Of a DNA stretch of 64,000 nt, positions 7,188 to 8,183 are shown one piece after another (the first letter of the stretch is position 1; the number at the start of each line of letters is the position of its first letter). The notes under the pieces were generated by a model. It was given only the letters and a program-made list of their open reading frames with translations. It ran no database searches and was not told where the DNA came from. The DNA is taken from assembly GCA_041498815.1 (NCBI GenBank), contig JBGQJC010000007.1, positions 7,524-71,523 on the forward strand, written 5' to 3'. The stretch is from Alphaproteobacteria bacterium (lineage in GTDB: Bacteria; Pseudomonadota; Alphaproteobacteria; DATDPM01). A program made the translations under genes and the position numbers.

Positions 7188-8183
7188 ATGATCCACGCGA
7201 ATCAAATACGATGGCTCAACCGCCCTATTTCTGTGAACGAATTACCAAAATTTTGGATACCTGAGTACCGTGCGAATCGGTATCTGAAGCCTCTAACCGA
7301 TAGTCAGCTACAAACTCGGATCGAGGATATTCTCTCGAATTTAATGGCACTCGGCGACGACGGGAAATACAGGCCTCGATATCTGATCGGTGAGAACAGG
7401 TTATATCGTCCAATTCGGAATTTGGACTTTCTCCGAATGCTGGTGGACATTGACGAAGAATGTCGGCTAAGGGGAAATCCATCACTTCTGGCCGACTTAC
7501 CCTCTGTCAATCTACAGCTGGCCCAGCGCCTCGCCGACGAGACGTGGTGTCGACGGCCGGATTGGGTTGAAAAATCGCGGCTCTCACAGGAAGTGTATCA
7601 GCATCCTCGGATGCTGTTCCGATTCAGCGAGCGGAAACACAATCGAAGTTTTTTTGAAGCTGGAGAGATGCATTTGCAGCCCGCGTCTGCCTACGATGAT
7701 CCATCCCTAAACAACGCGCTAGCCGATGATGAGTGCGTCAAGAAATGGTATGGCGAGCATGGAATTATCAAAACCTTCTCCGTTCCGGATTACTACTGTA
7801 TCTGCTTTGCCGCCACGTATGACGTTCGGCTATTCCGGGATTTTCGAAAGAGCGATTTCAGTTGTGTGGCAATCGGGGATGTTCTCGAATTTACCGAACG
7901 TCTCCGAAGGGCTATCAAAAAACACAACGGGTTACACGCTGAAACTCGAATCCAGGCACTCATCACTTCGCCGGTAATTTATTATGACCCATTCTCTCTT
8001 GTCGATATGTCGACGCCATCCGAGGTGTATTTTTCCAAGCATTTTCGTTTTGCGTATCAAGAAGAGTTTCGCCTTGTTGTAATTCCAGCGCATTCCAGAA
8101 AACTGCAGCCGTTCTCTTTAAATATTGGCGCAATCACCGACATCGCGGAGTTCATGTTCGATCCGTTGAGCCCATCGGGCTGA
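7188..8183 (+). CDS. Hypothetical 331-aa protein (orphan, low-GC, about 47% GC); co-oriented with the upstream nuclease-like gene
   Basis: Long uninterrupted ORF in a compositionally anomalous segment. I recognise no catalytic motif. It is rich in Arg, Leu, Phe and Tyr and shows no transmembrane segments. Confidence 0.6.
   Translation: MIHANQIRWLNRPISVNELPKFWIPEYRANRYLKPLTDSQLQTRIEDILSNLMALGDDGKYRPRYLIGENRLYRPIRNLDFLRMLVDIDEECRLRGNPSLLADLPSVNLQLAQRLADETWCRRPDWVEKSRLSQEVYQHPRMLFRFSERKHNRSFFEAGEMHLQPASAYDDPSLNNALADDECVKKWYGEHGIIKTFSVPDYYCICFAATYDVRLFRDFRKSDFSCVAIGDVLEFTERLRRAIKKHNGLHAETRIQALITSPVIYYDPFSLVDMSTPSEVYFSKHFRFAYQEEFRLVVIPAHSRKLQPFSLNIGAITDIAEFMFDPLSPSG

Follow-up and report, generated by a model that had tools for sequence, protein, structure and literature searches.

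A 331-residue protein from a decayed low-GC islet represents a widespread family with a DUF2971-like core: a candidate stand-alone toxin or abortive-infection effector

The gene and its low-GC islet

The DNA analysed here, called the window throughout, is a stretch of 64,000 nucleotides (nt) from an alphaproteobacterial genome (assembly GCA_041498815.1, contig JBGQJC010000007.1, positions 7,524 to 71,523). It encodes a protein of 331 amino acids (aa), which the comparisons below place in a divergent branch of the DUF2971 superfamily and link tentatively to stand-alone toxins or abortive-infection effectors. The gene is an uninterrupted open reading frame (ORF) of 331 codons at positions 7188–8183 of the forward strand and starts with ATG. 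An open frame of this length had a chance expectation of ~0.01 (six frames, 64 kb, local composition). Homologues were found with E-values reaching 1e-127, their N-termini lined up with the ATG at 7188, and a 100% identical copy of the protein had been annotated on a JGI contig. The ORF is a genuine, conserved gene. A previous inspection of the letters without database searches, referred to here as the sequence-only reading, had described a long, clean ORF of foreign composition that lacked a transmembrane helix, a signal peptide and motifs for nucleoside triphosphate or metal binding. All of this was borne out. The GC content of the gene was 48.7%, compared with 64.4% in the window, and the low composition extended over the whole tract given in Table 1. 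The protein had no hydrophobic stretch resembling a transmembrane segment (maximum 19-residue Kyte–Doolittle value 0.93) and no signal peptide, and Walker A, CxxC and HExxH were all absent in a motif scan.

The islet also holds a 47-codon ORF (MNYNFCRIHKTLRVTPAMAAGVTDRLW...) that was 50–72% identical to the C-terminal tail of annotated IS1 family transposases from alphaproteobacterial plasmids and overlapped the start of the adjacent gene for a 141-aa protein. Since this transposase remnant is present, the islet is interpreted as a decayed mobile insertion, and the best explanation for the 331-aa gene is that it was acquired horizontally as cargo of this now-decayed element. Direct repeats of the 3' end of the nearby tRNA-Leu(UAA), of the kind expected for att sites, were searched for around the islet and none were found. 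A perfect TTGACA-17-TATAAT promoter match was observed inside the islet on the minus strand (6478–6506), directed toward the tRNA gene. Beyond the phasin gene, an intergenic 21-nt tandem repeat (AAATTCTTTGTTGCGGCGCAG, two copies) occupied positions 9091–9132.

Table 1. Features at the locus of the 331-aa protein. Positions refer to the window and residues to the 331-aa protein.
Feature	Position	Strand	Evidence or remark
tRNA-Leu(UAA)	6035–6121	+	~330 nt left of the low-GC tract
Low-GC islet, ~1.75 kb, ~47–54% GC in a 64% GC genome	~6450–8200		Holds the IS1 remnant, the 141-aa gene and the 331-aa gene
47-codon remnant, C-terminus of an IS1-family transposase	6535–6678	+	tblastn against plasmids
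141-aa PD-(D/E)xK-like protein	6664–7089 (149 aa from TTG at 6640)	+	Weak match to REase MTES_1575
Gene for the 331-aa protein	7188–8183, including the stop codon	+	ORF list, translation, homologues
N-terminal helical module and linker, residues 1–135	7188–7592	+	AF2 model, conservation
Alpha/beta core, residues 136–331; DUF2971-like, putative ADP-ribosyltransferase-like fold	7593–8180	+	AF2, hhalign
First core strand L-F-R-F-S-E, residues 143–148	7614–7631	+	R145 is the candidate motif I (hhalign)
P-A-S-A-Y-D-D-P-S-L-N-N-A-L-A-D-D-E, residues 165–182	7680–7733	+	hhalign, family alignment
R-L-F-R-D-F-R, residues 214–220	7827–7847	+	Replaces the DUF2971 'MWsHYa' signature (hhalign)
K-H-F-R-F-A-Y-Q-E-E-F-R, residues 284–295	8037–8072	+	Candidate [Q/E]-x-E catalytic motif III
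GC-rich hairpin followed by a T-run	8203–8226	−	Probably terminates the host phasin gene; bounds the islet on the right
Host phasin gene	8343–8849	−	

Size, distribution and conserved residues of the family

A word-indexed search of clusters at 90% identity returned 35 homologous clusters, ~30 of them full-length (~300–370 aa) with 47–61% identity to the 331-aa protein. In an exhaustive search of 1.84 billion representatives clustered at 50% identity, 725 clusters matched at E ≤ 1e-3 and 373 at E ≤ 1e-10. A genome scan recovered 80 loci with family genes, whose hosts belonged to the Alpha-, Beta- and Gammaproteobacteria, Acidobacteriota, Nitrospirota, Bacteroidota, Planctomycetota, Desulfobacterota and others. 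Three plasmids and four IMG/VR viral contigs carried relatives as well, and the C-terminal third of the protein matched PHROG 26561 (function unknown) at 3e-11. The description of the protein as an orphan in the sequence-only reading was therefore wrong.

No relatives were found with tblastn in phage genomes or in a metagenome scan with the single 331-aa protein as the query. Pfam and PADLOC scans of 46 family members gave no recurrent match, and a literature search found no paper mentioning the family. The family is widespread and without library annotation, several hundred of its clusters being labelled 'hypothetical protein'. In an alignment of 46 sequences, the residues R44, E91, G159, D180, E182, Y265, D267, K284, E293 and R295 were invariant, and all of them are present in the window protein. 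The statement that the protein has no recognisable motifs accordingly stood for the hidden Markov models (HMMs) of the libraries, while it failed for the invariants of the family alignment and for the profile–profile link to DUF2971 described next.

Relationship of the core to DUF2971

Modelling with AlphaFold2 (AF2) yielded a full-length model with a mean predicted local distance difference test (pLDDT) score of 87.6 and a pTM of 0.86. It consisted of an N-terminal helical module and an alpha/beta core (~140–325), which reached a pLDDT of 94.1 when modelled alone with 86 sequences. Family alignments were compared by hhalign with an alignment of DUF2971 (A5) built from 15 PGAP-annotated DUF2971 proteins of plasmids that had been collected from a Yersinia plasmid seed. 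This was a single comparison, fixed beforehand. The probability was 91.0% for family alignment A1 (P = 1.1e-6), 86.7% for A4 (P = 4.4e-6) and 70.6% for A2 (P = 3.9e-5), compared with 0.2% (P = 0.25–0.36) for all three when A5 was reversed. The alignments between the family and DUF2971 were collinear across 146–165 columns.

Several conserved positions of the two groups coincided. R145, at a position occupied by K or R across the family, aligned with the Lys in the 'YKY' strand of DUF2971, D171-P172 with the 'NDP' motif, and V-x-Y265 with a V-x-Y of DUF2971. F219 aligned with the invariant Tyr of 'MWsHY'. The segment K284-x6-Q291-x-E293-F-R295 had the same spacing as K-x6-E-x-E-Y-R in DUF2971, with the first acidic position changed from E to Q; in the family, K284, E293 and R295 were invariant and Q291 nearly so. 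The invariant residues of the 15 DUF2971 proteins were W88, Y91, G97, K160, E167, E169 and R171, and the invariant D180 and E182 were specific to the 331-aa family. Because of the profile–profile comparison and these shared motifs, homology of the core to DUF2971 is supported at the profile level, and the family is best placed as a divergent branch of the DUF2971 superfamily.

A group of shorter, core-only relatives bridged the two, with hhalign probabilities of 98.9% (1e-17) to the family and 80.8% (1.3e-5) to DUF2971. It included a 217-aa protein of a Pantoea plasmid (WP_323276020.1) and a 235-aa protein of a Photobacterium plasmid, and its members matched the family core at 46 bits (hmmsearch). 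The Pantoea protein matched PF11185, the Pfam model of DUF2971, at an E-value of 0.094. On plasmid p1_80K of Yersinia hibernica (L182:3208-4576), an annotated DUF2971 gene was followed directly by a core-only relative, near a HEPN gene. The Pantoea core-only gene had no counterpart in an E. coli genome search. On plasmid p1 of Vibrio echinoideorum (L193:353-2214), two annotated DUF2971 genes were arranged in tandem.

PF11185 comprises 89 positions, from 'MW' to 'ExExR', on proteins of ~300 aa. Genuine DUF2971 proteins (L185:1270-2205, L186:1249-2172) reached only 30–35 bits on this model, whose gathering score is 22 bits, and none of the family sequences scanned attained the latter. That PF11185 misses the 331-aa family is unsurprising, because the family has replaced the 'MWsHYa..HkG' signature. 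Divergent branches of DUF2971 are systematically missed by this short model.

A 2025 survey predicted DUF2971 to be ADP-ribosyltransferase (ART)-like, noting a conserved Tyr, an ExE motif and similarity to DarT, AbiGi and scabin (PMC12522546). In the 331-aa family, candidate ART motifs were located at collinear positions: R145 (K/R), F219 and/or Y265 together with S167, and Q291-x-E293. When the core model was searched against the PDB with Foldseek, KptA/Tpt1, which has the ART fold, ranked first, accounted for eight of the 21 top matches and had the highest probabilities among them, although these matches were not significant. The full-length model gave nothing significant against the PDB or BFVD. 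By analogy with DUF2971, we infer that the 331-aa protein may adopt an ART fold and catalyse NAD+-dependent ADP-ribosyl transfer.

The N-terminal helical module

In the AF2 model, the N-terminal module was formed by helices at residues 20–29, 38–52 and 81–95 and a small hairpin, followed by a linker of low confidence (~101–125). It spans residues ~17–130, with the conserved part at ~17–100 (W-x3-Y-R-x2-R-Y-L, R44, N51, E91, R95). The family HMM also matched residues 276–350 of an otherwise unrelated 356-aa protein (L033:1859-2929, minus strand), whose N-terminal half was PD-(D/E)xK-like (..ADFLLDD..VLELK..) and which carried a copy of the module at ~263–350. In the reciprocal direction, tblastn matched the C-terminal stretch of this 356-aa protein to the N-terminal module of ~40 family members. 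The gene of the 356-aa protein was convergent to a family member and adjoined MqsA/MqsR-like genes. A tblastn search of plasmids with the module consensus yielded one true family match, the rest being chance matches to TrbB at E = 0.2.

Sequence comparison thereby showed the N-terminal module to be a separable domain. Since it precedes a DUF2971/ART-like core in the window protein and follows a PD-(D/E)xK-like domain in the 356-aa protein, the module (W-x3-Y-R-x2-R-Y-L...E-x3-R) may be a portable domain for sensing a trigger or recognising a target that is combined with different killing domains. We consider this idea speculative and rather doubtful; if it were true, the module would mark a modular family of single-protein abortive-infection sensors that has not been described before.

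Another architecture was found in the family member P0190 (L197:3775-4803), which had an N-terminal SEC-C zinc motif (Pfam, 1e-4) and was encoded just downstream of a large serine recombinase.

Genomic context

Among 571 neighbouring ORFs within four genes of the family gene (88 loci), no protein family recurred. The 150 immediate neighbours were heterogeneous in a Pfam/PADLOC census. Defence genes among them were GajB/NERD-UvrD, type I restriction–modification, mad2, PD-Lambda-1, PDC-S13 and PIN. In twelve loci, the gene context was annotated, either by precomputed Pfam assignments or in plasmid records. Recombinases, integrases, transposons or conjugation genes were present in ~7 of these, and the mobile-element genes observed near family genes comprised serine recombinases, an integrase, Tn3 and TrbI. 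In 69 of 72 genome loci, the family gene had a lower GC content than the flanking DNA (median −7.8 GC points; Wilcoxon p = 3e-13), and the gap exceeded 5 points in 52 of the 72. This composition fits a horizontally transferred, solitary cargo gene.

Adjacency to a tRNA gene, as observed in the window, was considered as a general trait of the family and rejected: a tRNA or tmRNA gene lay within ~8 kb in 13 of 60 loci and within 1 kb in only three. In a Bradyrhizobium locus (L014), a homologue with 39% identity was found 4.4 kb from a tRNA-Leu(UAA) gene (L014:13383-13469), the same tRNA species as in the window; the family gene of this locus appeared to be fused or frameshifted with the ORF upstream of it. 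In the Bradyrhizobium subclade and one metagenome relative, a conserved ORF of ~113 aa immediately preceded the family gene (L009:7556-7897, L014:~7557-7937, L097:~154-552). It consisted of two repeats of ~55 aa (MPRLA.LTK.HG..L.G..VVQCAT), was absent from the window and may encode a subclade-specific partner.

The protein encoded upstream of the 331-aa gene belonged to a different, large family. One of its homologues was named 'PD(D/E)XK endonuclease domain-containing' by UniRef, and the family comprised at least 860 clusters, with 63–85% identity among the best 120 listed. Such conservation is unusually high for a small accessory gene. With the 149-aa form as the tblastn query, the sole match was to its own locus; the other 170 loci fetched, all encoding a relative of the 331-aa protein, gave none. 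An 85%-identical homologue (L176) was located in a Prim-Pol/AlpA element and followed by a different gene, and another (L178, Edaphobacter) among housekeeping genes. Conversely, the closest homologues of the 331-aa protein examined (48–61% identity) had unrelated upstream genes, and BLASTP gave no alignment between the 141-aa neighbour and the upstream gene of the closest of them. Because the two genes did not co-occur across loci, their adjacency in the window is regarded as local and not as a conserved module. The 331-aa protein most likely acts alone and not with its nuclease-like neighbour.

Proposed function and alternative explanations

We propose that the 331-aa protein is a stand-alone, mobile-element-borne toxin or abortive-infection effector of the ART type, a reading that we hold tentatively, at nearly an even chance. 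The core would bind NAD+ and attach ADP-ribose to a nucleic acid or a part of the transcription or replication machinery, with R145, F219 and/or Y265, and Q291-x-E293 as candidate active residues. The N-terminal helical module would keep the enzyme inactive or recognise its trigger or target, and activation upon invasion by a phage or another mobile element would arrest both the cell and the invader. For this protein, we infer the ADP-ribosyl transfer and what it acts on, regulation by the module and a defence phenotype. The sequence-only reading had named an Abi-type protein in its own right as one option; this direction is favoured by the single-gene organisation, the mobile context and the homology to DUF2971, an argument from homology and context.

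A number of observations weigh against this proposal. At the level of the sequence, Pfam and NCBIfam scans of the 331-aa protein gave nothing at E ≤ 1. PF11185 in particular had no match at this threshold for the window protein, 46 members, five longer members and two family consensus sequences, DarT and AbiG models gave none at E ≤ 0.1 in PADLOC scans of the window protein and 46 members, and searches of PDB sequences with the A1 and A4 family profiles and the A5 DUF2971 profile returned nothing at E ≤ 10. The W, Y and HkG of the DUF2971 signature are absent, 'RLFxDFxaD' standing in place of 'MWsHYa..HkG' with Tyr changed to Phe, and Gln takes the place of the first Glu in ExE. No biochemical demonstration that any DUF2971 protein has ART activity was found in PMC12522546, PMC11381338 and PMC13064643. 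As for the context, no recognised defence system was seen adjoining the gene in the window, and the immediate neighbours of the family other than the defence genes named above were some mobile-element genes and many housekeeping genes. Defence genes were present within two genes in three of the twelve annotated loci, so the association is anecdotal; these three were flanked by a Gabija-like pair with a NERD helicase, by TIR-TPR, and by HEPN, Mrr and REase-ARP-like genes, respectively.

Four other explanations were weighed. That the reading frame is a non-functional relic, either a piece of a larger gene decaying as a pseudogene, as the sequence-only reading had allowed for, or an ORF arisen by chance in AT-rich inserted DNA, would suit the decayed state of the islet, with its IS1 transposase stump and with neither an integrase nor an att repeat. 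It is contradicted by the full length of the protein relative to ~30 homologues of 310–337 aa, with both termini aligned, by the retention of all invariant residues, by the low chance expectation and by the high-confidence AF2 model, and is the most improbable of the explanations considered. Hardly more credible is a two-gene system in which the 331-aa protein would be the sensor or regulator of the 141-aa PD-(D/E)xK-like nuclease within one defence module, as had also been suggested from the sequence alone. The two genes are co-oriented, 98 nt apart and in the same low-GC islet, with no terminator or promoter match between them, and the L033 locus, where a family member adjoins a PD-(D/E)xK-like protein with a copy of the N-terminal module, indicates that some link between module and nuclease exists. 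The nuclease-like protein of L033 is, however, unrelated to the 141-aa protein and in convergent orientation. The family of the latter is far larger, independently distributed and surrounded by other neighbours, and it was absent from all 170 other loci; the unrelated genes upstream of the closest 331-aa relatives and the lack of a recurrent family among the 571 neighbours, the 150 immediate ones included, likewise left the suggested partnership unsupported.

The remaining two explanations, each of which we consider unlikely though well above the preceding ones, concern the chemistry and the beneficiary of the protein. Its core might not be an ART at all, in which case D180, E182, D267, K284, E293 and R295 would form the site of a hydrolase, a nuclease or another nucleotide-processing enzyme, or a non-catalytic binding surface. 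The insignificance of the fold matches to ARTs, the loss of the 'MWsHY' motif, the extra invariant acidic residues D180, E182 and D267, which have no counterpart among the DUF2971 invariants, and the lack of biochemical proof in the three papers cited above all speak for this. Against it, two independent published analyses placed DUF2971 in the ART fold (PMC12522546, PMC11381338), KptA/Tpt1 was the only recurrent fold among the top Foldseek matches, a [Q/E]-x-E motif on a strand is the classic ART motif III, and the Pfam and PADLOC scans of the 331-aa protein showed no PD-(D/E)xK, HNH or HEPN match. Alternatively, a protein with the same fold and probably the same chemistry might serve a selfish or offensive role: it could be a toxin by which the mobile element enforces addiction or exclusion, counteract defence, or act as an effector on other cells. 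The occurrence of the family on plasmids, conjugative or integrative elements and viral contigs, the PHROG match, the scarcity of recognisable defence islands among its neighbourhoods and the prediction that ~18% of DUF2971 proteins are secreted effectors (PMC12522546) would agree with such a role. It is opposed by the lack of a conserved antitoxin-like or immunity-like partner, by the lack of a signal peptide, a transmembrane segment or any linkage to a secretion system, and by the antiphage activity of Aristaios, the sole DUF2971 protein with a phenotype.

If the proposed role as a stand-alone ART-type toxin or abortive-infection effector is correct, several hundred clusters of 'hypothetical proteins' from Proteobacteria, Acidobacteriota, Nitrospirota, Bacteroidota, Planctomycetota and plasmids would join the DUF2971/ART-like toxin superfamily. 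In this branch the set of candidate catalytic motifs is altered (K/R, F, QxE), and the N-terminal module is new and also occurs fused to a nuclease-like domain. A considerable share of the superfamily is missed by the Pfam DUF2971 model with its 89 positions. The proposal also provides, for a protein that may be a single-gene defence system or a toxin, a hypothesis that can be addressed by mutation (Q291/E293, N-terminal deletion). No new principle is implied, as DUF2971 and Aristaios were already known.

Comparison with known systems

DarT and AbiG are components of toxin or abortive-infection systems. DarT, AbiGi and KptA/Tpt1, ART-fold enzymes that act on nucleic acids, are the nearest characterised relatives of DUF2971 according to PMC12522546. 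In contrast to DarTG and AbiGi, the 331-aa family has neither a partner macrodomain (DarG) nor an AbiGii-like gene conserved beside it, and its motif set is K/R...F/Y...QxE, whereas that of DarT, AbiGi and KptA-type enzymes is H-Y-E.

PDC-S31 of PADLOC, itself only a candidate phage-defence family, was matched weakly by the window protein over the K..QxE.R region (E = 0.049) and by another member at 0.019. The matches of the core-only homologues, which lack the N-terminal module, were stronger, at 5e-6 (the Pantoea protein) and 0.007.

Rugutis (pUCCL633_059), a lactococcal antiphage protein of 359 aa, has an N-terminal SEC-C motif and a fold unlike any in the PDB. It shares the N-terminal SEC-C architecture with P0190, and the 331-aa family might include it, judging from a comparison by description; a tblastn search with P0190 gave no match in Lactococcus.

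With DUF2971 (PF11185; the Legionella lpg1268 family, PMC12522546), the 331-aa family shares profile homology across the whole core and the same order of secondary-structure elements. Common to both are a [KR] in strand 1 (YKY versus F[RK]F), 'DP' after strand 2, V-x-Y, and K-x6-[EQ]-x-E-[YF]-R. DUF2971 proteins are likewise of similar size (260–316 aa), encoded by single genes and frequently found on plasmids or mobile elements. The 331-aa family differs from them in escaping detection by the Pfam HMM, in having 'RLFxDFxaDxC' for 'MWsHYa..HkG' and QxE for ExE, and in possessing the additional invariant D180 and E182 and an N-terminal helical module of ~130 residues, while the C-terminal ~100 residues of DUF2971 with 'IxxIYFG' are lacking.

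A close parallel is Aristaios, a DUF2971 protein of 316 aa that protects against phage as a single gene, has an ART-like model (PMC11381338) and interferes with phage transcription (PMC13064643). Compared by description, Aristaios (Lactococcus plasmid pUCCL641_199) and the 331-aa protein are each encoded by a single gene for ~320 aa on mobile DNA and have a core of the DUF2971 superfamily, although the DUF2971 model recognises Aristaios and misses the 331-aa protein, and the host phyla differ. Aristaios is the only member of the DUF2971 superfamily for which a phenotype is known, namely phage resistance and interference with phage transcription.

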